Notes under the pieces: generated by a model
The model's input: the letters and a program-made list of their open reading frames with translations, nothing else
What the model was told of the DNA's origin: nothing
The model's database searches: none
Made by a program: the position numbers and the translations under genes
Shown: piece by piece, positions 5,382 to 43,801 of the stretch
Position numbering within the stretch: position 1 is the first letter of the stretch
Layout of the letters: each line of letters starts with the position of its first letter
Assembly: GCA_031539225.1 (NCBI GenBank)
Contig: JAVKLJ010000001.1
Coordinates: 19,791 to 83,790, forward strand
Length of the DNA: 64,000 nt
DNA from: Patescibacteria group bacterium
Lineage (GTDB): Bacteria > Patescibacteriota > Gracilibacteria > BD1-5 > UBA2023
Direction: 5' to 3'

Positions 5382-5738
5382 TTATTCTTTGAGAGTATTT
5401 TTCATCACGATAAATGTCGGCTTCTGTATCTCTATCATTCGCGATACGGCAGGAGAGCTCACAACCGCATCAATAGACTTCCCTTCTGCTATACGGATAT
5501 CGAGGAGATTTTCCTGAAATGAGAGTTCCCTATATTGCACCTGAAGCGTACGGATATTGTATCCTTTTGTTGCATTTTGATTCAGAATCCAGACATAGTA
5601 GACACCGAGGAGAGCAATCATCACGATAGCGAGAATATATGTCTGAGTAAATGAAAGTCTAAAATGTTCTCGAGCGGCTTTTCGCTCAGAGAAGAATGAG
5701 ATATGTCATTTTTTTGCTACGAGAACATTGGCATTCAT
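5382..5738 (-). CDS. Small single-pass membrane protein, FtsL-like (position after rsmH)
   Basis: One TM helix (YILAIVMIALLGVYYVWIL) followed by a coiled segment. It sits directly downstream of rsmH, as ftsL does in dcw clusters. The function call rests on position and topology only. Confidence 0.45.
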
Positions 5739-5759
5739 AAGACAAAAGTTTTGAGGGAT

Positions 5760-6665
5760 TTATTTCTTTTCTACGATTCTGAGTTTCGCACTTCGACTTC
5801 TGGGATTTTCGGCTATTTCATCTGGAGTTGGCTCGATGGGTTTTTTTGTATATTTTGAGAGGAGTGCTGGGACTTTCGTTTGTCAGGTGATTTCATCTTG
5901 TTCATCTTTGAGATACTGCGCAAATATGTTTTTGACGAGTCTATCTTCGAGAGAGTGAAATGTGATAACAGCGATTTTTCCTCCTGGGGCAAGATGCTGG
6001 ATAGCATATTCGAGAGAGTCTTCGATATGAGCAAATTCATCATTCACAGCAATACGCAATGCCTGGAAACATCGAAGTGGTGATTTTTGGTCGAAACTTG
6101 CCTCTGCGATGATATCACGAAGCTTTGCTGTTGTATCTATACGCATAGTTTTTCGCTTTTCGATAATAGCACGGGCGATATAGCGAGACTTGGGCTCATC
6201 AGCATAGCGGAAAAATACACGAGCAAGCTCTTCTTCAGAAGTGGTATGGATAAAATCTTCAGCCGTACGACCGTGTGTCCGATCAAATCGCATATCCAGT
6301 GGTCCATCCATACGCAGCGAAAATCCACGAGAACCATCATCATAGTGGAGACTACTGACTCAGAGATCATAGAGGATAAAATCTATTTTTTTCTCTTCTT
6401 TGAGTATATCCGCTATTTGAGCAAAACTCTCATTATAAAGAGAGACTTTTGCCTGCGTTTCGATAGATTCGAGTTTTTCTTTTGCGAGGACAAAGTTATC
6501 TCTATCACGATCAAAACCTATAAGCTCATCTCAATTTCCGAGAAAAGAAAGGAGCATACTCGCATGTCCACCGAGACCGAGTGTTGCATCGATCACCGTT
6601 TTTTTCGATGGATGGAGAGAAAAAACAGAACGAATTTCCTCAAAAAGTACTGGAGTATGAGACAA
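5760..6665 (-). CDS. rsmH: 16S rRNA (cytosine1402-N4)-methyltransferase RsmH (MraW)
   Basis: SHTPVLFEEI..IDATLGLGGHA..YDLGVSSLHYDD..RGFS..GPLDMRFD..ITFHSLEDRLVK..NPRSRSAKLRIVEKK. ORF 5883-6311 continues through TGA on both sides. No ATG is available, so the start was placed at TTG 6663-6665. Confidence 0.9.
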
Positions 6666-6831
6666 AAGTACAAGCGATAAATGATAAAAACGAACGCTTC
6701 AAAGATAGTATTTTTTCTGTTCCTGTCAAACCAAAATGGAGTAAAGTTTTTGACAAAAAATACACAAAAATCTCGACAAATAGAGAGATTGTGAAAAAAA
6801 TGGCAAAAAACTCCCCATTTTCTTTTGAAAA

Positions 6832-8475
6832 ATGAGGTATTTTTTCTATAATCAGCCCATGCCACAATTTAAAACAAAAAAACTCAAAACAGTCACTCCA
6901 ACAGATAATGAAGGAATAATCCCAGAAAACACAATCATCAAAAAAAGACTCAGATACATCATCGGAGGATTTCTCGTGGTTTTAACTGGGGTTTTTCTCA
7001 TAAACATGGGAATACAAGCTATGAGTAATATTCGTCTTTGAAGTTCTACTGGAGCTATTTTTAAGCCGATTACATTTCCTATATTTTCGACAAAACCAAC
7101 AGATGAAAGTGTGACGAACATCCTCATTGCTGGAATCTGAGGAAAATGACACGAATGAGGAAATCTCACCGACTCACTCATGCTCGCATCGTTTGATGCA
7201 AAAAATAAACAAGTGACACTTCTCTCTCTTCCGAGAGACCTATTTGTAGCATATCCAAATCATACCTGAGCAGGCCGCATCAATACACTCTATGGAATAG
7301 GGAAGGAAAATGGGGAAGGAATAAATCTCCTCGCAAATAAAGTATCAGAAATCACGGGACAACCAATACAACACTATCTCGTTATCGACTTCGGATGATT
7401 TAAAGATCTCGTCGATGCACTTGGTTGAGTTGAGGTAGATGTCCCTCATGATCTCGTCGACCGCGAATATCCAGATGAAAACTGGGGATATACGACTTTT
7501 GTTGTTCGAGCATGAACACAGACATTTGATGGAAATACCGCCCTCAAGTATGCGAGAAGTCGACATTCGACGAGTGACTTTGATAGATCAGAACGACAGC
7601 AAATACTCATAAAAGCAATCAAGAATAAAGCACTGCAACTCGAAATACTCACGAACCCATCAAAAATAAAATCTCTGTATGATACAATATTATCCCATCT
7701 CGATAGCGATCTCACTCTTGGAAATATAGTAGATTTAGGTATCAAATTCCAAGACATACCATCCGATCATATCCATGTATACAATCTCAATAATGAGTGC
7801 TATTGAAGTATTTGTTCTGCATGAGCCTATCTCTATACCCCATCACGAGAATACTTTGGCGGAGCATCAGCTGTGATTCCGGAAAATGCAACAGCACAAA
7901 AACTCAGTGTCTATGATGATATAAAGAGATTTGTAAGTTTCATCTTTACATTTCCAGATATAAGAAATGATCGATATCCGATAAATATCATCACAACAAA
8001 AACAAATGAGAAGCAAGCAAAGAGACTTCTTCTCGAATTTCAAAAAATGTGACTTCAGATGGAGCCAAATAATGCCATACTCTTTACTGGATGACTCGAT
8101 ACTTCCCATATAAATATATATTGGAATATGGATGCTGACATAGGATTCTCTCCTGAAAATCTGATTGTAAAGGCACTGAAATCTATCGAGGAAACAATAC
8201 CATATATCAGTGTTTCACATAATGAGTTTATCACCGATAAATGACCTCGTATAGAAATAGTTCTCGGAAAAGATGCTTCGTCATATTTTTCTTTTGCAAA
8301 AACACCTTTTTATCTCCCACTCATCGAATCTACAGGAAGTAATAGTACAACAGGAAATACTCTTTCATCTGAAGGAAAAGTAAATAAAATAAATACCTCT
8401 ACAAAAACACAAACAAAAACCATCCCCTCAACTACTCCATACACGGTAGCACCTGGGGAATGGGAAAACTTTTAG
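6832..8475 (+). CDS. LytR-CpsA-Psr (LCP) family cell-envelope polymer transferase with a long C-terminal extension
   Basis: I translated the full length and found only TGA interruptions. It has an N-terminal TM helix, NILIAGIGGKGHEGGNLTDSLMLASFD..LLSLPRDL..INTLYG..IQHYLVIDFGGFKDLVDALGGVEVDV and ALKYARSRHSTSDFDRSERQQ. The start could instead be the ATG at 6859. Confidence 0.85.
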
Positions 8476-8495
8476 TTGTTTTACCAATAATAACT

Positions 8496-11400
8496 ATGAG
8501 ACATCTCTCAAAAAAACTCCATGAGATTATTCGTTCAAAAAGAAAAAGAACCAATTTTTCCATGCATCCTCTGAGGAAAATAATTGGAATATGCGTCATG
8601 ATAGGGAGCCTATTACTTTGATGAACTCTTTTGTATTTTTTTCATGGAATGCCATCTATAGAGTCTATGGCAAATGGGAACTTTTTTCGTGAAAGTAGTG
8701 TTATTTATGATAAAGATGGGAATGAAATTTATAGTATTTTCAAAGATGGAAAACGCACATATATTCCCTATGATACAATATCTCAGTCAATAAAAGATGC
8801 TATCATCAGTGCGGAAGATAGGACATTTTTCGAAAATCCAGGAGTAGACTTTCGTGGTCTCCTCAGAGTGGCTGCAACCTATGTCACAGGAAACTATGGA
8901 CGAGTATGATGAGCATCGACGATTTCTCAGCAACTTATCAAAAATACACTCCTTTCAAACGAACGATCAATAAAACGAAAAATTCAAGAAGGATATCTCT
9001 CCTATAGGCTCAATAATAACTACACAAAAGAGAAGATTCTCGAAATGTACCTTAATGCTATATCATTTGGATATAATGCAAATGGTATTGAACAAGCTTC
9101 TCGCACATTTTTCGGGAAGAGTGCAAAAGATGTCTGACCACTCGGAGCAACGATACTTGCTTCTCTTCCAAATGGACCGACAAAATTTTCACCATACCTC
9201 CATCGCGATGTACTTATGGGAAAACTCGATGTCTATCCAACGGGGAATCCTGAAAATACAAAGACACTTATCACAACCGAAGATAAAAAGAATTATGCAT
9301 CCCTTTATACTGGATTTAAATCATACATAGGTTCGTTGACTTTCAATAGATCCGATAAATGACTCAAGGTATGTAATGTTATAAATGCTAATATAAAATG
9401 ATGAGTATTTGAAGCAGATGATACAGGTTGTATCAGTCTCGCATTTAATGATGTTATCAAATTTTTCTCAAATATTACGATAGAAAAAGAAATATCAACA
9501 GAAAATGGGTTACAAAAATATACGATTGAATATACAATCGGAAGAAAAGACTTTGTCGCCTCTCAAATGCTCGAAGATGCAAAAATAGACGGACCAACAT
9601 TTGGAAAAATACTCTCTGATGGTATTGACTTTGAATTTAAAAAATACTCTGAAAATATCAAGTATCCATATTTTGTGATGTATATAAAAGAATATCTGGA
9701 AAATAAATATGGCAAAGATATCGATATCACAAGTGGTCTAAAAATCTATACAACTATTGATCCAAAACTCCAGGAAAAAGCAGAAGAACTCATAAAAAAA
9801 CAAGTTGCCATAAATAAAGTACAGTACTGAGCATCCAGTGCTGCACTCGTGAGTATGGATAATACCTCTGGAAAACTCCTCGCTATGGTGGGTGGTCCGG
9901 ATTATTTTGATATAGAACATGGAGGTAATAATAATATGGCAACGGCACTGAGACAACCTGGGTCATCCTTTAAGCCATTTATCTATTGACTCGCAATTTC
10001 AAAAAATCCAATAGGTCCAGAAAGTCCTATTGCTGATGCAAAAACAGACTTTGGAGAATGGACACCAGACAACTATGATAGAGAATTTTATGGTGTCATG
10101 ATGGTAAAAAACGCTCTAGCATATTCACGAAACATCCCTGCTATCAAAATGTTTTATCTTGCAGGTGGCGAAGATACGATTATAAAATTTGGGAAGAGTC
10201 TCGGACTTGGTACTCTCAAGGAAAATGCTTGATATGGAGCGCCTCTCGCTATAGGAACTGCGGAAGTGAGACCACTTGATATGATGCAAGCATATAGTGT
10301 CTTTGCAAATCTTGGGATAAAAAGAGATTTTTATGCTATAGAGAAAATAGAAGATAGCGATGGAAATATTATTGAGGAAAAAATAGCTTCCGAAAAAGAT
10401 AATACCATCTTCTCACCAGAAGCAAGCTATATAGTCAATAGTATCCTCTCGGATAATAGTGCTCGACCAGAATCCACATTTTGGAGAAATGCGCTCAGTA
10501 TAGGATGAAAAATAGTTGCAGCAAAAACAGGAACTTCGAATAAGGATCTCAGTAAAAATGGAGAGAAGAAAATTCTCCCACGAGATCTCTGGACTATATG
10601 ATATACTCCGGATATCACGACGGTTGTTTGGGCTGGAAATGTCGATGGAAAAGAAACAAAGTGAAATTGTGACGGGCTCAATTGTGCGGCCCCTATTTGG
10701 CGTGGTTTTATGGATTTTGCTCTCAAGGGTAAGGAAAACACCGGATGGAAAAAACCAAGTGGACTCTATACATATAACATAGTGAAATCGAGTGGGAAAC
10801 TCGCCACCTCAGATACTCCTGCGGATCAAATTGTCAGCACACTTATGGCGGTAAAATTTGATAAATACGATGATGGACTCAAGGAAATAGAAGTTGATTC
10901 ACTCTGTAATGGTCCTGTAGCAGAAAATACGCCACCCGAAGCAATAAAAAAAATATACATTCCTGGCTCAAAACCAATCATCGATGGATATGATCCTGCA
11001 TGGACTTCTGGATTTTTTGATGCTATAAATAGTACAAAATGAATGACTGGAACCCTTTCTCAAGTAACGCAATCAAATACGCCATGTGAAAGACCAGGTG
11101 GACCAGGAAATATATCAATTTCTATACAATCTGTATGAGTGAGTAGCGAGAAAATAGGCGGAAAGAAAACTATGGAAGTGACATGGATTGGAGACAGAAA
11201 GATTGCAACTCTGAGAATCTCTTACCAAGATGAGGTCAAAAGAGAAATACAATACGCAACAGGAGCAAACGATAGATGAACTGAAAGAATTGCTATAGAA
11301 AATATAAAAGAAGGTGCTGTTTTGAAGGTAGAGGCAATTGATACATTTGGCTTTAAGTACACGGAATCAAAAACCATCGTACAAGAAAGTACTGTGTCCT

Positions 11401-11729
11401 GAACAGACTCGTCAACAAATACACCAGTAGATACAACAATCATAAATCCTGAGATTATCCTCTCAAATCCGAAAAATGGAAAAATCAGCATTTATCTCGG
11501 AGACGCATTTAATCTCCGATTTCAAACGAAAGTATGAACTGCAAATCGAGAAGTACAAGTCTCTATCGATGATACCACACTCCAAAATGCAAATGCATGA
11601 GAATTTTTCGTCATACCAATATCCTCAACAAATCTCACAGCAGGAAACCATTCAGGAAAAATCACTCTTATAGATGGAAATTTTAAAACAACAACAAAGA
11701 AATTTACCATAACTGTTATCCCTCGTTAA
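8496..11729 (+). CDS. Class A penicillin-binding protein (glycosyltransferase GT51 + transpeptidase) with a C-terminal extension
   Basis: GT51 motifs [29 protein letters not shown] and RKIQE. Transpeptidase motifs QPGSSFKP and AAKTGTSN. Fragments 8631, 9567, 10266 and 10710 are all in frame with the ATG at 8496. The tail 11040-11729 was translated and is open. Confidence 0.9.
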
Positions 11730-11730
11730 T

Positions 11731-12408
11731 ATGCACTATAAAAATGTCACTCTCTCATATGGTGAAAGAACTATTCTTCGAGATGTTTCTTTTACTATTG
11801 CACCAGGAGAATTTGTATTTCTCATAGGAGCCTCTGGAAGTGGGAAAACAAGTCTTATTCGTTCAATTATATGATATATATGAGTAAAGCATGGTCATAT
11901 ATACGATGATAGAGAACGCGATATATCTCTTTTGTCTCCAAAAGAACTCATAGCATATAGACGCAATATCGGCATTATCTTTCAAGATTTTAAACTTCTC
12001 CCAAAAAAAACTGTACGGGAAAATGTGGCATTTGCACTCGAAGTAAGTGGATATGGAAAAGATATTATTGGAAAAAGAGTTCCTGAGGTACTCTCTCAAG
12101 TATGACTCCTTTCAAAAAAAGATAAATTTATAGAAACTCTCTCTGGTGGAGAAATACAGAGAGTTTGTATTGCTCGAGCACTCATACACTCCCCTGCTAT
12201 CATCATTGGTGATGAACCAACAGGAAACCTCGACCGAAAAAATGCCGATGAAATTATTATGCTTCTCGAAAAACTCAATCAAGAGGGAAAAACTATCATT
12301 ATGTCTACACATGATGAGTATATAGTAAATACGCTCAAAAAAAGAGTCATCGCTTTTCAGGATGGGAAAATTATCTCTGATACGATAGGAGGAACTTATT
12401 GTCTCTAG
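11731..12408 (+). CDS. ftsE: Cell-division ABC transporter ATP-binding protein FtsE
   Basis: Walker [10 protein letters not shown], signature LSGGEIQR, Walker [13 protein letters not shown]. About 225 aa, FtsE-like in length and sequence. Starts 1 nt after the PBP stop. Confidence 0.8.
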
Positions 12409-20369: not shown

Positions 20370-21061
20370 TAAAAATCTTTCCTTTTCATCCACTCACCAA
20401 ACTTTCTCGCAGCCTCAACTCCTGGATCAATTAGATCTGGGAGTTTTTTATTTCTTTTAATATAATATTTTTCTATAGAGTTCCGAATAAGTGGATAATG
20501 CGTACACCCGAGAACAAGCGCTTCAATATCAGAAGAAAAATGACTGAGATACACATCAAGTAAGCCATCTATCTGATCTCACTCTACAATCCCCTGCTCA
20601 ATCAAAGGAACGAGTCAAGGGGCAGAGATTTCTTCGACCGAGACAGAATCATCGAGAATATGCACTCGTTCCTTGTACATACGAGTTCTCACAGTTGCCT
20701 CTGTGGCGAGTACACCAATCTTTTTATATCACCCTTCGACGACAGCTTCCGCACCAGGAACTGTCACTCAGAGAATATGTCTTCAGGAATATACTTCTTG
20801 CTGAAGCCACCTGAGTGCATGGACACTTGCAGTATTACAGGCAAGTATGATGACATCTGCTCATCTCTCAAAAAGTCTTTCTACTCAAGCTTTTGTCAGT
20901 CTTCGTATCTCATCTTGTGTCTTATCTCCATATGGTGCATTTTCTCTATCCATTTCGAGGATCATATCTATATTAGGAAAGTATGACTGAAAAACCTCCA
21001 TAACGAGTTTTCATCAAAGTCACGAATCAAAAAATCAGATACACAGATTAGATTTTTGCAT
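20366..21061 (-). CDS. murI: Glutamate racemase MurI
   Basis: IGFFDSGLGG (three of these Gly are TGA), ILACNTAS and VLGCTHYPL. 231 aa. Its stop overlaps the stop of the convergent 18645-20369 gene within TTAA. Confidence 0.92.
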
Positions 21062-21090
21062 AAAAAAAATCGGGGATTATGTCCCCGATT
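21062..21090 (-). terminator. Rho-independent terminator after secD
   Basis: aatcgggga-ttatg-tccccgatt. On the minus strand the stem is followed by a run of 8 U. Confidence 0.6.
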
Positions 21091-21115
21091 GTATGAAACT
21101 TTGATTCTTTTACAA

Positions 21116-22813
21116 TTATTTCTTATATCCGATAAATGCGAAAGTTTTATGATGCATTTTCTTCGCTGTCACCTCGATAAGGACTCGACTCACCCACATA
21201 GCAGTAAAAAGTGAGAGGACGATACCGAGACCGAGCATAAGACCGAATCATTTAATGAGAGATATACCGAATATATAGAGAATAGCAGCCGATGTCAATG
21301 AAGTAATATGAGAATCCCAAATTGCTGTCCATGATTTTTCAAAACCAATATGTGTTGCTTTTTCGAGAGGATGTCCTTCACGGAGTGCTTCACGCATTCT
21401 CTCGAATATGAGGATATTTGCATCGATGGCAAGACCGATCGAGAGGATGATACCAGCGATAGAAGCAAGTGTGAGAACAGGACCAAAAAGTTTTACAAGG
21501 GCAACAAGGATCAGTGTATAAATCACGAGAGCCACTCCAGCGAGAAGTCAACTTATATGATAGAAATAAGTCAGAAACGCTATAATGAGACCGAGACCAA
21601 TGAGACCTGCGAGAAGAATCTCTGAAAGTGCATGAGAACCAATTTTAGCATCAATCGTTCGTTCACTTGTGAGGTATATAGGAGCAGGAACAATACCAGT
21701 ATTGATATCATTTGCGAGTTTTTGTGCTGATTGTACAGTATAGTCACCAGTGATGACAGCTCGACCATCAGGTATAACTGCTTGAACTGTAGGAGCTGTG
21801 AGCATCTGTCCACCGACAAATATAGCAATCTGCTTCCCTATCAGTCTTTTTGTGAGTTCAGCAAATATCTTTTTTCCTTCCTCATTGAATGTGAGTTCTA
21901 CTTGAGGTTGTCCTCATTGAGTAAAGCCAACCCCAGCACTCACGAGGTATTTATCACCGAGAACTTTTCCATCCTTTGTTTTTGCTTGAGTCCATGAACT
22001 TGCTCGTTCATCTATGAATATGTATGAATATGAATAATTTCCTGTTCCTGTTTTTGAATTAATTTCTACAAGAGCATATCCAGTATTACTCTTGATAGTA
22101 GGATTTCCATCCTGATCCATACTGTATTCTATATTTCCTTGAGTGATAAGTATCGGTGAATGGTATGGGAATTTTTCTACTTTTTCAATTCCAGGAAATG
22201 TAGCTTCTGGAGGAAGACTTCCAGTTCATGATGCAAAGACAACATTTTCATATTGATCACGATATTTTTGTCCTATCGTTGCAAATGGTGTTGTACTCAT
22301 CTCATTCCAAGCCTTATTTGCGAGTTCTTTTCTTTCTTCTCTATCAGAGTCAGTAATATTTGTCTTTGCTTCGCGAAACTCGAGTTGTACAACTTTTCCG
22401 ATAGTTGCTTTTGCTTTTTCAGTATCCTCCGCACTTTTCTTTCTCTTTTCGCTTTCAGAAACATTTCCATAGTCACGAGTAGGAATCTGGACAATGATAT
22501 GAGATTCATCACCATATTTTGCTGTCTGAATTGTTGGTTCCGCGAGACCAAGAGAGTTTACGCGTTTATCGATAACTGACTTGATTCCTTCGATGATATT
22601 TTGTTCACTCCAAGTTGCAGTACCAGTCTGTGATTTGAGTGTTTCAAAATCAACCTTATAATCGAGCTCTACACCTCATTGAAGATCAAGTCCGAGAGTA
22701 TACGGCTTAGCAAGAAATGGTATATCGATACCAAATTTTTCCCATGGTGTAATATATGCAAGCGATAAAACTACGAGAAAAATAACAAAGAAAAATCTAT
22801 GTGAAAGTTTCAT
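21116..22813 (-). CDS. secD: Protein translocase subunit SecD (no adjacent SecF)
   Basis: Fragments 21248-21535, 21548-21805 and 21914-22120 are in frame with the ATG at 22813. It has an N-terminal TM helix, a large periplasmic domain (GGQMLTAPTVQAVI..GRAVITG) and a C-terminal 6-TM block (SIGLAIDANILIFERMREAL). ORF 21248 continues through TGA to the TAA at 21116. Confidence 0.85.
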
Positions 22814-24008: not shown

Positions 24009-24035
24009 TTAGCACTTATAAAAAATAGGTGCTAA
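24009..24035 (+). promoter_or_regulatory. CIRCE operator (HrcA binding site) upstream of groES
   Basis: TTAGCACTT-ATAAAAAAT-AGGTGCTAA, compared with the consensus TTAGCACTC-N9-GAGTGCTAA. It lies 121 nt upstream of the groES ATG, and an hrcA gene is present at 41787-42485. Confidence 0.8.
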
Positions 24036-24041
24036 ATTTTT

Positions 24042-24069
24042 TTGACTTTTTATTTCAATTTTATAAAAT
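24042..24069 (+). promoter_or_regulatory. Candidate sigma70-type promoter for groES
   Basis: TTGACT (24042-24047), a 16-nt spacer, then TAAAAT (24064-24069). AT-rich context, so only suggestive. Confidence 0.35.
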
Positions 24070-24155: not shown

Positions 24156-24470
24156 ATGAGCATCTCTCATGATATGATCGAAAAGATCACTCCCCTCTCG
24201 GATAGAGTACTTCTGAAACCTGTAGAGGCAGATAAGGTCACAGCATCAGGTATCATCATCCCTGATAGTGCCAACAAAGAACGACCATCCGTCTATGAGG
24301 TCATCGCTATCGGACCTGGAAAGATGGACAAAAATGGACAAGAAATAAAAATCGACCTCAAGAAATGAGATCGAGTTATCAGCGGACAATACTCTGGTGA
24401 TGATGTAAAAGTCGGAGATACTACTTATAAGATAGTAGCGTTTGAGTATATTTTGGCGAAAATCGCATAA
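24156..24470 (+). CDS. groES: Co-chaperonin GroES
   Basis: [37 protein letters not shown]..; 104 aa with one in-frame TGA (KKGDRVI). Confidence 0.92.
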
Positions 24471-24632
24471 TTTTCATAGATGAAAAACAGGTTTTTCGGG
24501 GTTTGGGGAGAGAAACTGTCTGAGTCAGATGAAAAACAGAAAATAGATGAGCAAAGCGAACGAGTTTTTCTCTCCCCAATAGTTTTGGTACTTTTTCTAC
24601 AAAAAGTACATAATACTCCTAAAGAACTCCCT

Positions 24633-24995
24633 ATGGATTTAAAAACTTTTGTAAAAGAATCTCTGATTCAAATCGATGAAGCATTAGCTGAAACATCTGA
24701 AAGATTTACTCAATATAGTTATAAATATTGAAGAAATACTTGAGGAAATCCAACTATTGACTTTGAAGTGCAAGTCTACGCTTCTGAATGAACATGAACA
24801 ACATGATGAGCATGAATAAGCGTTGCTTGATGGAAATTATGAATGAACTGAGAAAGTAAGAACTCAAACTATGAACAAAGCAAAATCAGCTTTAGTGTTG
24901 TAAGAGAAAATACACCTAAACAAGATAAGATCGAAAGAGAAGAAAGGAAAAAACATGCTCCAGTATTAAAAACCTATACCCCATTTAATGCATAA
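24633..24995 (+). CDS. Small trypco2-like (trypsin-co-occurring domain 2-like) protein inserted between groES and groEL
   Basis: MDLKTFVKESLIQIDEALAETSERF..GGNPTIDFEVQVYASEGTGTTGGAGISVAGWKLGMNGESKNSNYEQSKISFSVVRE. The layout is an N-terminal helix, a beta strand, a Gly-rich loop and more beta strands. Ten Gly in the loop are TGA codons. Start chosen at the ATG at 24633; the frame is open from 24480. Confidence 0.6.
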
Positions 24996-25007
24996 CCTTT
25001 AATAACC

Positions 25008-26648
25008 ATGTCAAAACAAATTCACTTCGGAGACGAAGCTCGTCTCAAGATGTTCTCCGGTATGGAGAAAGTCGCAAAAACAGTAACGGCTACTATGGGA
25101 CCAAAAGGTCGCAATGTGATATTCGCTAAATCCTACGGCGCGCCTCAGGTAACCAACGATGGTGTCACTATAGCAAAAGAAATCGAACTCGAAGATAAAA
25201 TCGAGAATATGGGTGCGGAGCTCATAAAAGAAGCTGCGAGCCGTACAAACGATGCTGCCGGTGATGGAACAACTACTGCCACTCTCCTCACCTATGCAAT
25301 GGTGAAAGAATGACTCCGTGAAATCCGCTCTGGAATCAACGCAATAGAGCTCAAAAATGGTATGAAAAAAGCAGGCTCTCTCGTCGTAGATGAACTCGCT
25401 CGTATGAGTCAAACCCTGGGTACTCAGGAAGAAATAGAGCAAGTCGCAACGATATCAGCTCAAGATGCTGAAGTTGGACAGATTATCGCATCTGCCATGG
25501 AGAAGGTCGGAAAAGATGGCGTTATCACTGTCGAAGAAGGTCGTACATTTGGACTCGAAGTCGAAGTCACAGAAGGTATGAAATTCGATAATGGATATAT
25601 CTCTCCGTATATGATCACTGATGGAGAGAAGATGGAATGACGAATCTCCGATGCGCATATCCTCATCACAGACAAAAAAATCTCATCGCTCAAGGATATC
25701 CTCGGCGTCCTCGAATCTCTGGCACAATCAGGAAGAAGAGAACTCGTCATCATCGCAGATGATATCGACGGAGAAGCACTCACAGGTATCATCCTCAACA
25801 AACTCAAATGAGTCCTCACAGTTCTCGGTATCAAAGCTCCAGGATTTGGCGACAAGAAAAAAGAAATGCTCAAGGATCTCGCTATCCTCACAGGTGCAAC
25901 TCTCATCACAGAAGAAACTGGATACAAGCTCGAAAACGCATCTATCGAACATCTCGGTCATGCGAAGGCAGTCGTATCAACAAAAGATAGCACGACCATC
26001 ATCTCTGGTGGTGGAGACAAGCATCTCATCAATACACGAGTAAATGAACTCCGTAATCAAATAGAAGCAACAAAGAGTGACTACGATAAGGAAAAACTCG
26101 CTGAACGCATCGCAAAACTCGCAGGTGGAATCGCAGTTATCAAAGTAGGTGCTGCAAGTGAAGTAGAAATGAAAGAAAAGAAACTCCGCATAGAAGATGC
26201 ACTGAATGCAACCAAGGCTGCAGTCGATGAGGGTATCGTTGCTGGTGGTGGAGTAGCACTCCTCAAGGCTGCAAAAGTACTCGAAAAAGTGAACCTCACA
26301 AAAGAGGAAAAAGTCTGAGCTGATATCGTCGCTCGTGCACTTACCTACCCTGTTCGTCAAATCGCTGACAATGCAGGAAAAGAAGGTGCAGTCGTAGTAA
26401 ATGAAGTTGCTTCAAGCGCTGATGCGAACTACGGATATGATGCTGCTCGAGATGAATATAAAGACCTCGTAAAAGCTGGTATCATCGACCCAACAAAAGT
26501 TGCTCGTTCTGCTCTCCAAAATGCTGTCTCTATCGCTGGAATGTTCCTCACGACAGAGGCTCTCATCGTGGATGCTCCGAAAAAAGAAGAAGCACCTGCA
26601 ATGCCTCCTGGAGGTATGGGTGGTATGGGGTGAATGGGAATGTATTAG
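25008..26648 (+). CDS. groEL: Chaperonin GroEL
   Basis: Full-length GroEL (546 aa): [26 protein letters not shown] and a C-terminal GGMGGMGGMGMY. Five in-frame TGAs, all at Gly positions. TAG stop. Confidence 0.97.
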
Positions 26649-26660
26649 AAGCAAGAAATA

Positions 26661-26689
26661 AAAAAACACCGAATATTCGGTGTTTTTTT
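26661..26689. terminator. Bidirectional terminator between groEL and the convergent cNMP-binding gene
   Basis: aaaaaacaccgaa-tat-ttcggtgtttttt: a 13-bp stem with symmetric A and T tracts. Confidence 0.75.
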
Positions 26690-26697
26690 ATTGTAGT

Positions 26698-28263: not shown

Positions 28264-30837
28264 CTATTTCCAAGAAAAAGAAAGTTCTTTTTTTGATGCA
28301 GAAATATGGAGTGTTTTCTCTTTCTTTTTTTCGAGCATATGGTTTGCAATGACATCCTCGATAGAATCTTGGATAAATCGTCTCACTGGTCTTGCACCGT
28401 ATTCTGGATTGTAGGTCTTTTCGAGGATTACACTTGTTGCTTTCGTATCAAAAGTACAAGTAATACTCAAGAGAGCGAGGCGTCTAATGAGATCATTCAT
28501 TTGAAGTCCTATAATATTTTTGAGAATCTTTTTATCAAGAGGATTGAAGACGATAGTTTTATCGATACGATTGAGGAACTCTGGAGAGAAAAATTCTGGA
28601 AGCTGTTTCATGACCTTTTCACGAATAGTATCATAGTCTGCGATGATTTTTGCCTCTTCCTTTTCATTTACGAGAAAACCGATTTTTTCAGCCTGAGAAT
28701 TAAATTCATCAGAACCAATATTGGAAGTCATGATGATGATTGTATTCTTGAAATTTACTGAACGGCCTTTTCCATCAGAAATAGCACCATCCTCGAGAAT
28801 CTGGAGAAGGAGATTATAGACATCAAAATTTCCTTTTTCTATCTCATCAAACAATACAATAGAGTATGGTTTTCTGCGAACTTTTTCTGTGAGCATGCCG
28901 CCCTCATCATATCAAACATATCCTGCTGTAGTACCGATAAGTTTTGAAGCACTTGATTTATCTTGAAACTCACTCATATCAATCTTTATAAGTGCCTTTG
29001 GATCAGAAAAGAATTCTTCTGCAAGAGCCTTTACGAGTTCTGTTTTTCCAACTCCTGTAGGACCAAGAAAAAGAAATGAACCAATTGGACGATTTGGATT
29101 TGAAATTCCTATTCGAGATCGTTTGAGAGAGTTAACTATAGAATCAATAGCATTATCCTGACCGATAATACGAGACTTTAGAGCAGAGTCGAGTCATTTG
29201 AGGCGACTGAGATCTTCTTTTTCGAGATTTTTTAGAGGAATTCCTGTCATACCATGCATGACTTTTTGGACATCAGCACTCGTAATATGGAGCCTGTCTT
29301 TTCGAGGAATAACACGCTTTTTTCGCTTTTCTTCCACTTCTTTGAGGATTTCTTCGAGAATCTTTCTTTTTGCTAAAGCCTTTTGATATTGCTGAGAAAT
29401 GAGGAATTCTTCCATCTGCTTTTGTACTCCTTGCATCTTTTCTTTGAGTTTTGCAATTTCTGGATTATCAAAATTGTAGGTCATACTCTTTGCACTACAT
29501 GCCTCATCAATGAGATCTATTGCTTTATCAGGAAGAAATCTATCAGTGATATATCGAGTAGAGAACTCAACAGCATCAGCAACAGCATCATCATCAATGA
29601 TGAGATTATGAAATTCTTCAAAACTCGGGCGAATACCCGTAATAATCTCAATTGCGGTTTTTTTATCAGGTTCAGCGACATCAATTTTCTGGAATCTGCG
29701 TTCCAGTGCACTATCCTTCTCAATATGTTTTTGGTATTCTGCGAGTGTCGTTGCACCAATGAGGCATATTTTTCCACGGGCCATGGCAGGTTTCAGGATA
29801 TTTGCCGCATCAAGTGATCACTCACCAGAACCAGCACCGATGATAGTATGTATCTCATCGATAAAAAGTATTATTTCATTTTCGAGTTTTGATGCCTCTT
29901 CGATAACGAGTTTGATACGGTGTTCAAATTCACCACGATATTTTGTTCCAGCCACCATAGCCGAGAGATCTAGCGAGATGATTCTTTTATTTTGCATAGC
30001 AAATGGAACCTCTTTTTTCGCAATTCGAAGTGCAAGCCCCTCTATCACGGCAGTTTTCCCGACTCCAGGATCTCCAACGAGACATGGATTATTTTTTGTT
30101 TTTCGATTCAATATGCTGATAAGTCGCTCTATCTCCATATCTCGTCCAATAATTGGGTCGATTTTTCCATTTTTCGCCTCAAGCGTAAGATTGGTTCCAA
30201 AAAAGTCGAGTGCTGGAGTATCAGAATTCTTTTTATCTTGAGGGGGATTTTGTGAAAATGGATTTTTCGGACTCGCTATATTATCAGTTCCAGGAGTTTT
30301 TGTATTTCCAAATGTATCTTCTATCATGTTCATAATTTCCTCTATAGGACCAAAAAGTCCACCATTTGTCGCGGACTCAGTCGCACCAGAAATGAGTGTA
30401 TTGAGTTCAACAAGTTCAGACTCAAAATCTTTTGGTGCAATACCGATAAAATCGAGAAGTTGATAAAACCAATTTTCTGTTTCTGTTCGGAAAATAGCAA
30501 GAAGAAAATCCTCGATTCCAGCCTGAGATTTTTGAAAAGTCGATGCTACTTTCATAGAAGCAACTATAAGCTCCTTGAGACGAGGAGATATACCCGCATA
30601 ATCCCCTGTTCTCTCCGTTCAAACAATAGACTGAAACGGTGGACGAGAAAGAACATCGGTAATAATTGTTTGATTGATACCAAATGTCGTAAAAAGATCA
30701 GCAATGTTTCCAGTAGAGATATTTGCAATCTGAAAAACGATATCTTCAGGAAGGATTTCCTTATAACCAAATTGCTTCACGCGGTTTTCTGCGGCAAGCA
30801 TGATATTTCGGTATTCTTCGGTAAATTGATTGAGCAT
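28264..30837 (-). CDS. clpC: Clp/Hsp100 AAA+ chaperone ATPase, ClpC-like (Clp_N, two NBDs, short UVR-like middle domain)
   Basis: Fragments 28264-28896, 29194-29784, 29818-30555 and 30619-30837 are all in one frame. Walker A GDPGVGKT and GPTGVGKT, plus a short linker [22 protein letters not shown]. 857 aa with a TAG stop. Confidence 0.88.
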
Positions 30838-41786: not shown

Positions 41787-42485
41787 TTACAACACCTGCC
41801 TGAGTGCCGTGATATTGAAAGCATAATCCATCATCGTCGGGCCGAGGATACCGAGGTATCCTGTATATCCATTTATTTCTATCTTTTTTACGATCATCGT
41901 ACTGGATTCGAGTTCTGGAATGACATTTTCCTCTCCGATAAATACAGATGCCTTTGTACCGATATCGAGTCAATCCAGTACATCAATAAACTGATGTTTA
42001 TTTTCGAGACACTTAATCACCTGAAACATTTCTTCTCCAAGTATTCCATGATGTCGTTCGAGATAGTTCGAAAGCCCAAGATAATACGAACTCCCGAGCG
42101 AAGGAATACAAGCAAATGTGATTTGTCCTGTGATTTTCGTAAGTCTGGAAACAAGTCCATAGAGGACATCGTCGATACGATTTTGCTCTATCTTTTTTTC
42201 ATATTCTTGCTCTGCTTCGATAAAAACCGCTGGCATCGTCTCCATGAGATAGTCGACAAATACACGAAGTCCTCGGGTCGTCGGGAGTCTCCCTGCTGAG
42301 TTGTATGGTTGAAAAATGAGTCACATCTCTTCAAGTGTCCCCATATCATTACGGATTGTAGCACTTGATACTCAGAGATCATATCGCTTTAAAAGATTCT
42401 TTGAACCGAGAACTTCCCCTGTTTTGAGATATTCTTCGACAATATGTTTGAGAACCTGGATTTTTCGTTCTTGGATTTTTGACAT
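41787..42485 (-). CDS. hrcA: Heat-inducible transcription repressor HrcA, unusually short (232 aa)
   Basis: RKIQVLKHIVEEYLKTGEVLGSKNLLKRYDLGVSSATIRNDMGTLEEMGLIFQPYNSAGRLPTTRGLRVFVDYL is the canonical HrcA winged-helix N-terminus. The C-terminal part is much shorter than the usual ~340-aa HrcA. Confidence 0.8.
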
Positions 42486-42488
42486 ACT

Positions 42489-42905
42489 TTATGAAACGAT
42501 TTCACCATGAAATAGAGAACCTTTACGACTTGTGAGCTTGACCGTATCTCCGACTTTTACACCATCGATATCGACGATATAGTTCACACCATCGAGCATC
42601 ACCTTAAAATCTTCTCCTACTTTTTTCACTTTACGAATCTCACCAATATACATATCGAGTCATTGTGCCTTCTCAGTATGTTCAGGAGTGAGCATGCGAG
42701 GAAGGAAGTATGAAACAAGAAATGATGTGAGAGCAAATATGATTCACTGTACAAGTGAGACGGTCGTATCATGAGTAAAAAATACAAAAATACCCACGAG
42801 AAATGATGCTATAGCGAGAGCAAGACCATAAAATGTGGTCGTCAACATCTCAATGATGAGAAAAATAACTCCTGCGGCAATCCAAAATGTGAGAAGTGAG
42901 GTCAT
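42489..42905 (-). CDS. NfeD-like membrane protein (partner of the SPFH protein)
   Basis: Two or three TM helices followed by an OB-like C-terminus (GEIRKVKKVGEDFKVMLDGVNYIVDIDGVKVGDTVKL). Lies immediately downstream of the SPFH gene. Confidence 0.7.
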
Positions 42906-42916
42906 AGGAAAAATAG

Positions 42917-43801
42917 TTATTTAGAAGTACCAAAAATCTTTGAAACACCTGCGAGGATATCGCTATCAAGGATATACTTTGTATTTTGTCCGAGTGCTCA
43001 TTCGATGACTTTGAGTTGTTCCTTTGTGATAGCTGCTCACTTAAAAAACGACTGTGCGGCATTTGATTCGAGTTCGAGTGCCTTGGCAGTAGCTTCAGCA
43101 ATAGCGATTTTTGCGCTTGCTTCACCCTGAGCTCTGAGGAGTTGCGCTTCTTTTTGTCATTCTGCCTGGAGGATTTGAGACTGTTTATCTCCTTCTGACT
43201 TCGTGATGAGAGATTGCTTATAGCCTTCTGCCTCAAGTATTTGTGCGCGTTTTTCTCGTTCTGCCTTCATCTGTTTACTCATAGAGTTCTGGATATCATC
43301 AGGTGGATCAAGCCTCTTGATTTCTACACGAAGTACCTTGATTCCCCACTTCCCTGTTTCACGATCGAGAGACTCGAGGAGCTTTGCGTTGATAGTCTCG
43401 CGATTTGAGAGTGTTTCATCGAGTGACATAGTACCGAGTACACTTCGGAGATTTGTTTGAGCGAGATTCACAACTGCCATAAAGACATTGTTGATGTCAT
43501 AAAGCGCCTGATATGGATCAGTAATTTGAACATATATCACTCCATCTACCGCCATTCCTACATTATCTTTTGTGATGATTTGCTGTTCTGGAACAGTCAC
43601 GACCTGTTCACGGATATCGACTTTTTTTACCGATTGAATACCCGGAATCAAAAAGAAAATACCAGGACCAATAGTATCTGTATAACGCCCGAGAAACTCC
43701 CTGAGTCCGACTTCACCCTGATTTACCTTCCTGACAAAAAGCGGAACGATGACGGCAGCTGCGATGAGAAGATAGACAAGCGTACTGATATCCATATTCA
43801 A
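42917..43801 (-). CDS. SPFH/band-7 (stomatin/prohibitin-like) protein
   Basis: N-terminal TM helix, then REFLGRY..GPGIFFLIPGIQSV..VDIREQV, KDNVGMAVDGVIYVQI and a coiled Ala/Glu-rich tail. ORF 43157-43801 continues through three TGAs to the TAA at 42917. Confidence 0.85.

Follow-up and report, generated by a model that had tools for sequence, protein, structure and literature searches.

The groES and groEL genes are usually separated by a short intergenic gap. In the 64-kb stretch of Gracilibacteria DNA examined here (hereafter the window), they lie exactly 537 nucleotides (nt) apart, from position 24471, directly after the groES stop codon (24468 to 24470), to position 25007, directly before the groEL ATG (25008). 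What does this spacer hold, and what might its content do inside a chaperonin operon? An original prediction, made from the letters of the sequence, had measured the same distance and proposed that the spacer encodes a protein of roughly 120 amino acids (aa) resembling the trypsin-co-occurring domain 2 (Trypco2) proteins of bacterial conflict systems. With translation in genetic code 25 (TGA = Gly), used throughout this work, the spacer does encode a 120-aa protein, whose gene we call X. We conclude with high confidence that X is a real, conserved gene of a Trypco2-like superfamily embedded in groESL. The three genes are as follows:

24156 to 24470, + strand: groES, 104 aa (Pfam Cpn10, 95.2 bits; 1 of 8 Gly codons is TGA)
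24633 to 24995, + strand: gene X, 120 aa plus a TAA stop, encoding a small Trypco2/Pepco-like protein read in code 25
25008 to 26648, + strand: groEL, 546 aa (Pfam Cpn60_TCP1, 240.9 bits; 5 of 57 Gly codons are TGA)

The standard code breaks groES at a TGA within the conserved KKGDRV motif, and reading TGA as Gly restores intact Cpn10 and Cpn60 proteins. X, too, is readable only in code 25, as had been noted; its frame is open from 24480 to the TAA at 24993 to 24995. We placed the start of this 363-nt gene at the ATG at 24633 because all relatives of X begin with MDLK.F and because the upstream 153 nt (24480 to 24632), although in frame with X in the window, are frame-shifted in two related loci, L007 and L009 (loci and proteins retrieved in this work carry L and P numbers, respectively). 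A 171-aa open reading frame (ORF) beginning at 24480 was rejected on the same grounds. The peptide quoted in the prediction, TIDFEVQVYASEGTGTTGGAGISVAGWKLGMNGES...QSKISFSVV, occurs verbatim in X. The ten glycines said to be encoded by TGA are present in frame, and the statement is essentially right, though placing them all in the loop was slightly loose: eight fall in the Gly-rich stretch (residues 53 to 73), and residues 33 and 37 make up the other two. Between the X stop codon and the groEL start lie only 12 nt, and a family hidden Markov model (HMM) run against the ORFs of the window found no paralogue of X there.

A search of 5.8 billion proteins recovered 11 relatives of X, and a profile search extended this set to 21, at 47 to 81% identity. 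Nearly all are metagenomic and had been translated with table 4, which gives W where the organism has G. X lies between Cpn10 and Cpn60 genes in at least 12 distinct Gracilibacteria loci. The complete order Cpn10-X-Cpn60 is seen in L001/2, L003/4, L007, L009, L017, L019, and L060; X stands immediately 5' of Cpn60 in L005/6, L010, L016, and L024/25 and follows Cpn10 in L008. On every readable Gracilibacteria contig X adjoins chaperonin genes, and the gap between X and groEL ranges from 12 to 84 nt. Besides Cpn10 and Cpn60, the neighbors encoded at these loci are HD, SecD, cyclic nucleotide (cNMP)-binding, and SH3 proteins.

The original prediction had proposed comparing the groESL spacers of related Gracilibacteria and looking for purifying selection. 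The related spacers keep X and its core reading frame, and selection on X was quantified by a Nei-Gojobori calculation that treated TGA as a Gly codon. Most pairs had a whole-gene dN/dS of 0.11 to 0.43; groEL from those pairs gave 0.06 to 0.09. The comparison of L003 with L019, which are nearly identical, gave 0.91. When X was split at residue 97 into a core and a tail, core dN/dS was 0.09 to 0.31 in pairs with measurable divergence; the gene is under purifying selection. The codon alignment shows free change at third positions and no insertions or deletions in the first 97 codons, and TGA and GGN codons interchange repeatedly at conserved Gly columns. These observations bear on the alternative that the spacer is non-coding and conserved as an RNA or DNA regulatory region, with a fortuitous code-25 ORF. 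The 5' third of the spacer (24496 to 24612) is indeed a truly conserved non-coding element, and the synonymous divergence of X is below that of groEL in some pairs. However, a fortuitous frame would not be expected to vary at third positions while conserving amino acids, to swap TGA for GGN, to avoid core frameshifts, or to have standard-code homologues (below) that align with it residue for residue and carry Gly at its TGA positions. A purely non-coding spacer was rejected on the codon alignment, the core dN/dS, and these homologues, and we regard it as extremely improbable. X is thus a genuine protein gene that a clade of Gracilibacteria carries at a fixed place between groES and groEL, and it appears to stem from a single ancient insertion that was retained under selection. 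The prediction knew of no such arrangement; likewise, our full-text literature search turned up no description of Gracilibacteria with a gene in the groES-groEL interval.

X differs sharply from its neighbors in codon usage. TGA accounts for 10 of its 11 Gly codons, compared with 26.5% of Gly codons across the window and 9 to 12% in groES and groEL (P = 1.4e-5). The same skew, 70 to 100% TGA-Gly, was seen for X in 10 other loci (9 distinct, since L005 and L006 carry the same X), whose groES and groEL genes contain 0 to 22% TGA-Gly, except for the groEL of L017 (28 of 57). Such near-exclusive use of TGA-Gly beside chaperonin genes that avoid TGA suggests that X is translated far less than its operon partners.

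To which family does X belong? A profile built from eight correctly translated X orthologues (A2) reached the standard-code proteins P0022 to P0025 at E values of 4e-11 to 9e-8 among 5.8 billion sequences. A bridging profile then gathered 1,725 proteins. An exhaustive HMMER search gathered 4,739 proteins, each representing a cluster at 50% identity; 2,326 of these scored E ≤ 1e-10. The members of this wider family, all annotated "hypothetical", stand alone, measure about 115 aa, and come from Proteobacteria, Bacteroidota, and phages. They have a helix at the N terminus, amphipathic beta-strands around an EGTGTxGG Gly-rich hairpin, and a short tail at the C terminus; examples are P0049 (Ephemeroptericola cinctiostellae), P0080 (Cellvibrio mixtus), and genes of Riemerella, Bacteroides, and Porphyromonas phages. 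In hhalign, the X profile matched 148 diverse family representatives with 99.4% probability (E = 2e-21) over X residues 1 to 90, and the family HMM singled out the X ORF among the window ORFs (E = 8e-22). Over residues 1 to 90, X shares about 35% identity with this unnamed family (consensus MDLKxFVxETLxQIxxGVxxAQ...VxFDVAVTxxEGTGTKGGIGV...SRVKFSVPLxLP), and both have the same start motif, the Gly-rich hairpin with EGTGTxGG, and the SxIxFSV strand at the end; X belongs within the family as a divergent member. Family members differ from X in having some 20 extra residues past the helix and in ending shortly after the last strand (VPLxLP); in X, the linker is shorter and RENTPxQ opens a charged tail some 30 residues long. 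The TGA-encoded glycines of X align with the EGTGTKGGIG motif, whose glycines are nearly invariant in the standard-code relatives; this is an independent proof that TGA is decoded as Gly here.

The only Pfam family that recurs among the members of this wider family is Trypco2 (PF19631), matched by 39 of 120 and 92 of 148 members, usually below threshold. Taking the curated gathering cut-off of 24.2 bits to define membership, one member, P0237, passes (25.9 bits, E = 1.2e-5), and the X profile matches P0237 with 95.7% probability (E = 9e-9). X itself gives no match to PF19631. Since the link runs transitively through the wider family and P0237, "Trypco2-like" describes remote homology and not membership, and it is in this sense that the original assignment can be kept. 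We read X as belonging to a large sister family of Trypco2, and the remote homology is probable.

Evans et al. grouped Trypco1 and Trypco2 under the name Pepco (bioRxiv 10.1101/2025.11.14.688446; on Trypco2 see also Kaur et al. 2020, PMC7159879). The defining genomic setting of Trypco2 is a place beside a gene for a trypsin-like (or caspase-like) peptidase, usually within a conflict system that includes a nucleoside triphosphatase (NTPase) or sensor. The 117-aa SsPepco of Streptomyces subrutilus (WP_069919158.1) forms constitutive 9- to 10-mer beta-barrels that resist sodium dodecyl sulfate (10.1101/2025.11.14.688446). Pepco requires its amphipathic N-terminal helix and becomes a lethal pore once the partner protease cuts off the charged, Pro-rich tail at I97|R98 (10.1101/2025.11.14.688446). 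The SsPepco sequence, taken from the supplement of that study, scores 65.6 bits against PF19631. Three parts of X can be compared with this build:

24633 to 24710, + strand: N-terminal helix, X residues 1 to 26 (MDLKTFVKESLIQIDEALAETSERFT), a helix by AlphaFold2 (AF2) models of an orthologue and a relative, moderately amphipathic by hydrophobic moment
24789 to 24851, + strand: Gly-rich hairpin tip, X residues 53 to 73 (GTGTTGGAGISVAGWKLGMNG), with 8 TGA glycines
24903 to 24992, + strand: charged C-terminal tail, X residues 91 to 120, hypervariable past a conserved RENTPxQ, by composition and proportion of nonsynonymous differences (pN)

AF2 monomer models were made for the Gracilibacteria orthologue P0006 and the relative P0049, with predicted local distance difference test (pLDDT) scores of 56 and 74, respectively. 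Both place a helix at the N terminus, at residues 3 to 28 in P0006 and 3 to 25 in P0049 (the latter with pLDDT above 80), followed by a long beta-hairpin whose Gly-rich tip is disordered or of low confidence; the P0006 model adds a C-terminal helix in the charged tail. The hydrophobic moment of the X helix is 0.33, compared with 0.26 for the SsPepco helix, and strong amphipathicity (p = 0.002) marks the strand at X residues 41 to 51 (TIDFEVQVYAS). Charged residues make up 43% of the X tail and Pro 10%, versus 35% and 20% in SsPepco, and the tail begins at a conserved hydrophobic-Arg junction, [VILF]-R91 (V90-R91 in X, followed by RENTPxQ), where SsPepco has I97|R98; this last correspondence is a resemblance only. 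X thus shares the Pepco-type build: a length of about 115 to 120 aa (120 versus 117 in SsPepco), an N-terminal helix, amphipathic strands around a Gly-rich hairpin, and a charged, Pro-containing tail. The sub-threshold to threshold PF19631 matches across its wider family are a further likeness. When the AF2 models were compared with PDB and BFVD by Foldseek, no match was found at E < 0.1 and no globular analogue emerged; this blank would fit a fold gained only as an oligomer, with the P0006 model too poor to carry weight. A sequence search of PDB with the family profile also gave no match.

Elsewhere in bacteria, the wider family of X is a mobile accessory gene, a setting that differs from the fixed position of X in groESL. 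The Cellvibrio mixtus relative (locus L013) belongs to an integron-like array of small cassettes beside an integrase, and a relative in a Steroidobacteraceae metagenome-assembled genome (L014/15) lies in a defense island, beside an Abi_C gene and an integrase. Family genes were also found in IMG/VR viral contigs and gut prophage regions. In cultured temperate phages, the gene lies in the lysogeny module: in Bacteroides phage BS-TP2 it stands directly 3' of a helix-turn-helix (HTH) regulator and beside HicAB, and in Riemerella phage PJA1 it heads the integrase-side cluster. The lysogeny module is the classic place of prophage-expressed exclusion and abortive-infection genes. Two side observations concern these relatives. 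In L013, at least 11 small same-strand ORFs (5528 to 12348) directly follow a divergent tyrosine recombinase gene (Phage_integrase), a gene layout like that of a cassette array in a chromosomal integron. Gut prophage-like contigs carry another small ORF, convergent to the family gene (L036 3302 to 3565, - strand; also L037, L039, L041, L043, and L053 to L055), and its sequence (MEENMAIELNDFVEKVLRDL...VEFEV...LIFSVP) itself has a Trypco2-like pattern.

Within Gracilibacteria, the two parts of X have evolved at different rates. Between pairs of X genes, pN was 0.2 to 0.58 in the tail and 0.01 to 0.24 in the core. The window and L007 are a case in point: core pN is 0.013 and tail pN 0.53, the tail having been wholly replaced (L007 3400 to 3492), and identity is 95 to 97% in the X core (97%) plus the upstream conserved element, against about 80% in the groES and groEL on either side. 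This identity pattern suggests recombinational exchange. The window tail matches that of L016, though the cores of the two are 76% identical, and L060 and L061 have a third tail type in common; from these alignments, the tail appears to have been exchanged as a module between lineages. Core and groEL identities are also incongruent in some lineages: L006 and L009 are about 90% identical to the window in groEL and only about 60% identical in the X core. Among X-bearing lineages, groEL identity falls as low as 64%.

The spacer takes other cargo as well. In L060 (1937 to 2242) and L061 (692 to 997), X and groEL are separated by a + strand ORF of 101 aa, here called Y (MNYKIFIDK...TLDYTGNGTGKEIKVGTDGS...), which has no Pfam match and no detectable similarity to X. 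The groES-X interval of L017 holds a 97-aa hydrophobic, membrane-like ORF (2635 to 2928, + strand), and in L008 (2090 to 3057) this interval contains roughly 1 kb of additional, unassigned sequence, in which an ORF of 101 aa runs on the other strand. The groES-groEL spacer therefore behaves as a small variable islet of which X is the one constant occupant.

How is X likely to be expressed? The signals found around the operon are these:

24009 to 24035, + strand: CIRCE (controlling inverted repeat of chaperone expression)-like operator, TTAGCACTT-N9-AGGTGCTAA, an inverted repeat upstream of groES
24042 to 24069, + strand: best sigma-70-like match, TTGACT-16-TAAAAT, 10 of 12 consensus positions, beside CIRCE; the number of such sites equals the shuffle expectation
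26657 to 26692, no strand assigned: palindromic hairpin with a 16-bp stem, scored as terminator-like on the minus strand, with A/T runs at both flanks
41787 to 42485, - strand: hrcA, encoding the CIRCE-binding repressor, 15 kb downstream (Pfam HrcA C-terminal domain, 58.2 bits, plus an HTH)

The operator, compared with the CIRCE consensus TTAGCACTC-N9-GAGTGCTAA, bears out the proposal to the extent that X lies downstream of a CIRCE operator, and both parts of an HrcA/CIRCE regulon, the operator in the promoter region and hrcA itself, are present in the window. Of the 11 loci scanned, 10 have an equivalent 5' of groES, and the eleventh (L016) is a contig that starts inside groES; none was found directly upstream of X in these 11 loci. 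The hairpin at 26657 to 26692 begins 9 nt past the groEL stop and is the only strong terminator-like hairpin in or just after groES-X-groEL; from its palindrome, action in both directions is inferred. No terminator-like site on the + strand was found between groES and groEL. On this layout, co-transcription of X with groEL is very likely and with groES likely, though not certain, and the heat or stress induction envisaged by the prediction is plausible. The locus thus resembles a canonical HrcA/CIRCE groES-groEL operon in having CIRCE before groES, hrcA in the genome, and a terminator after groEL, and it differs in carrying an RNA-like element and an extra gene across 537 nt in place of a short gap. 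Two neighboring observations may be recorded here. In the region 41787 to 43795 (- strand), hrcA adjoins a gene for a putative NfeD-like membrane protein (42489 to 42905, no Pfam match) and an SPFH/Band_7 gene (42917 to 43795). An 857-aa ORF at 28264 to 30837 (- strand) looks ClpB/ClpC-like by inspection of its sequence.

Upstream of X lies the conserved element already mentioned:

24496 to 24612, + strand: conserved non-coding element, 117 nt, about 90% identical in 7 loci

The other copies are at L007 2994 to 3109, L008 2919 to 3034, L009 1032 to 1149, L010 2865 to 2981, L060 1406 to 1522, and L061 158 to 275. The X proteins of these seven loci diverge to 56% identity, so that the element is more conserved across lineages than the coding sequence beside it. 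No reading frame is kept across it. It can be drawn as a long first hairpin, GGGGAGAGAAAC...GUUUUUCUCUCCCC, with a conserved internal loop of about 47 nt, and an AU-rich second hairpin, GUACUUUUU-N4-AAAAAGUAC, which overlaps a weak promoter-like match (TTGGTA-18-CATAAT, 24585 to 24614). G-U changes and one compensatory pair favor an RNA read from the + strand, with covariation too sparse to prove the structure. A covariance model found one element per locus and none elsewhere in the window; Rfam gave no match at gathering thresholds, and at E ≤ 10 only chance-level hairpins from microRNA models. A pattern scan of viral contigs for the element returned 0 matches. A hammerhead-like or attC-like fold, suggested by inspection, found no support. 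The X-bearing lineages L001, L003, L005, and L016 lack the element, so it was a later addition to the locus; it could serve in processing, in attenuation, or as an internal promoter.

Given the family and operon evidence, we infer by analogy that X is most likely a domesticated, stress-co-expressed, latent membrane-active effector. The promoter under HrcA/CIRCE control would drive transcription of X along with the chaperonin genes. HrcA stays active only as long as free GroEL is available. Its inactivation by heat, proteotoxic stress, or GroEL load, which could include phage morphogenesis, would then raise the level of X. If it behaves as SsPepco does, X would assemble as an oligomeric beta-barrel carried on amphipathic helices and would do no harm before a protease or stress removes or displaces its charged C-terminal tail. 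Freed of the tail, it would permeabilize the membrane and bring about abortive infection or stress suicide. TGA-Gly usage would keep translation of X low, and the 117-nt element may uncouple its expression from that of groES. The latent-pore, stress-triggered function, taken by itself, is doubtful, though possible; the complete statement, a Trypco2-like gene in groESL together with such a function, falls slightly short of an even call.

Several results weigh against this reading. X alone retrieved nothing relevant from Pfam, NCBIfam, PADLOC, or PHROGs. The check that the prediction had proposed, HMMER against PF19631 with the code-25 translation, failed: neither X nor its orthologue P0006 matched even at E ≤ 10, and neither matched the NCBIfam trypco2 model. 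Profile comparison by hhalign and hmmsearch with SsPepco and three other Streptomyces trypco2 proteins, from plasmids, was not significant (hhalign E of 0.04 to 0.4 for the X or family profile against SsPepco or the four-sequence alignment, templates that are shallow and from a single genus). PADLOC models also miss the wider family and SsPepco itself. The N-terminal helix described in the prediction as amphipathic holds up as a helix in both AF2 models, but its amphipathicity does not exceed that of shuffled sequence (p = 0.10), and the pLDDT of 56 for P0006 makes a poor model on which to build. No peptidase gene is adjacent to X in any locus, and no GDSGG or TNxHV trypsin motif occurs in any frame of the window, so that no candidate agent for the proposed activation step was found. 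Here X departs from Pepco, having no adjacent trypsin-like or caspase-like peptidase and no STAND or vWA-MoxR partner; it also lies in a housekeeping chaperonin operon and not in a defense island, in a code-25 host that encodes its glycines with TGA. Transcription of X from the CIRCE promoter is itself not certain, because groES and X are 0.8 to 1 kb apart in L008 and L017 and because the conserved element overlaps a promoter-like site. Finally, a toxin kept over the long term in an essential, highly expressed operon could equally signify a benign, chaperonin-related role.

That benign role can be stated as a rival: X would be a small oligomeric protein, domesticated as a chaperonin accessory, that acts together with GroEL/GroES or is handled by them and has lost any toxicity. 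Examples would be a membrane tether, a co-factor, and a protein regulating HrcA-GroEL feedback. Its placement just 5' of groEL, never more than 84 nt away across lineages whose groEL proteins are 64 to 77% identical, is what one would expect of such a partner, as are purifying selection on the core, the missing protease, and the ease of squaring a harmless function with residence in an essential operon. Yet the family elsewhere is a stand-alone mobile gene with no chaperonin link; the core identity of L006 and L009 to the window is incongruent with that of groEL (0.60 versus 0.90); a hypervariable, swapped tail is seen more typically in conflict genes than in housekeeping partners; and TGA-rich codons argue against expression stoichiometric with GroEL. 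We therefore consider an accessory role unlikely. Alternatively, X could be a hitch-hiking, moron-like gene that exploits the strong chaperonin promoter for its expression alone, with a role that has nothing to do with stress or GroEL, for instance superinfection exclusion at the membrane, and with the spacer a permissive hot spot for insertion. The additional cargo of L060, L061, L017, and L008, the exchange suggested between the window and L007, and the phage relatives residing where exclusion genes are typical all speak for this possibility. Against this, X is the only occupant that the spacers of all recovered loci share, and it appears to go back to one ancient insertion kept under selection; a hitch-hiker's expression would follow CIRCE/HrcA anyway, so that the stress link is compatible with both accounts. 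Hitch-hiking strikes us as improbable to the same degree as the accessory role. Our preferred reading remains that of a latent effector.

A bolder extension of the latent-effector reading is that groES-X-groEL forms a chaperone-titration immune or suicide circuit, in which sequestration of GroEL derepresses a latent Pepco-like pore. In such a circuit, a phage or proteotoxic insult would tie up GroEL, HrcA would switch off, and the operon would be derepressed; loss or displacement of the hypervariable tail would then let the pore kill or arrest the cell. The chaperonin feedback loop would sense infection in place of a dedicated sensor protein, and the TGA-Gly run and the upstream RNA element would serve as extra safety catches on translation. 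We offer this as a speculation less likely than either of the two rivals above.

The nearest parallel is found in another conflict system. EACC1-protease modules occur as fusions with DnaK-like chaperones, and the authors of that work see in this a convergence of defense and stress (10.1101/2025.11.14.688446). As would hold for X in the reading preferred here, a core chaperone system of the heat-shock response has a small pore-forming defense effector physically coupled to it. The differences are that EACC1 is not Trypco2, that the chaperone is Hsp70 and not Hsp60/10, that the coupling is a fusion to a protease-sensor protein and not an operon insertion, and that a protease is present.

A few observations apply to the window as a whole. 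A stop-free antisense frame of 562 codons lies opposite groEL (24999 to 26687, - strand), and another long stop-free frame (20660 to 22768, + strand) lies opposite secDF, itself placed by synteny with related loci. Because TGA has lost its stop function, spurious ORFs turn up often in this genome, and ORF lists need care. No tRNA gene (by ARAGORN) and no Rfam family at gathering threshold was found anywhere in the 64 kb.

These results bear on code, family, and cell. X furnishes a clean internal proof that TGA is decoded as Gly, and it brings a striking contrast in codon usage into a single operon. It also leads to an unnamed family of very large size (about 4,700 clusters at 50% identity), which goes unrecognized by the current models of Pfam, NCBIfam, PADLOC, and PHROGs. 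What is new is a divergent Trypco2/Pepco-like candidate effector in an unprecedented, protease-less housekeeping operon, for which the EACC1-DnaK fusion is the nearest precedent (10.1101/2025.11.14.688446). Pepco/Trypco2 proteins, which make membrane pores when bacteria defend themselves against phages, have only recently been shown to be protease-licensed pore-formers and have so far been described beside proteases and sensors. Here, a probable divergent relative has become fixed without a protease in the most conserved heat-shock operon of a candidate phyla radiation lineage. This would mean either that a defense effector has been rewired to the general stress response, in parallel with EACC1-DnaK, or that a pore-former has been domesticated to a chaperonin-linked role.

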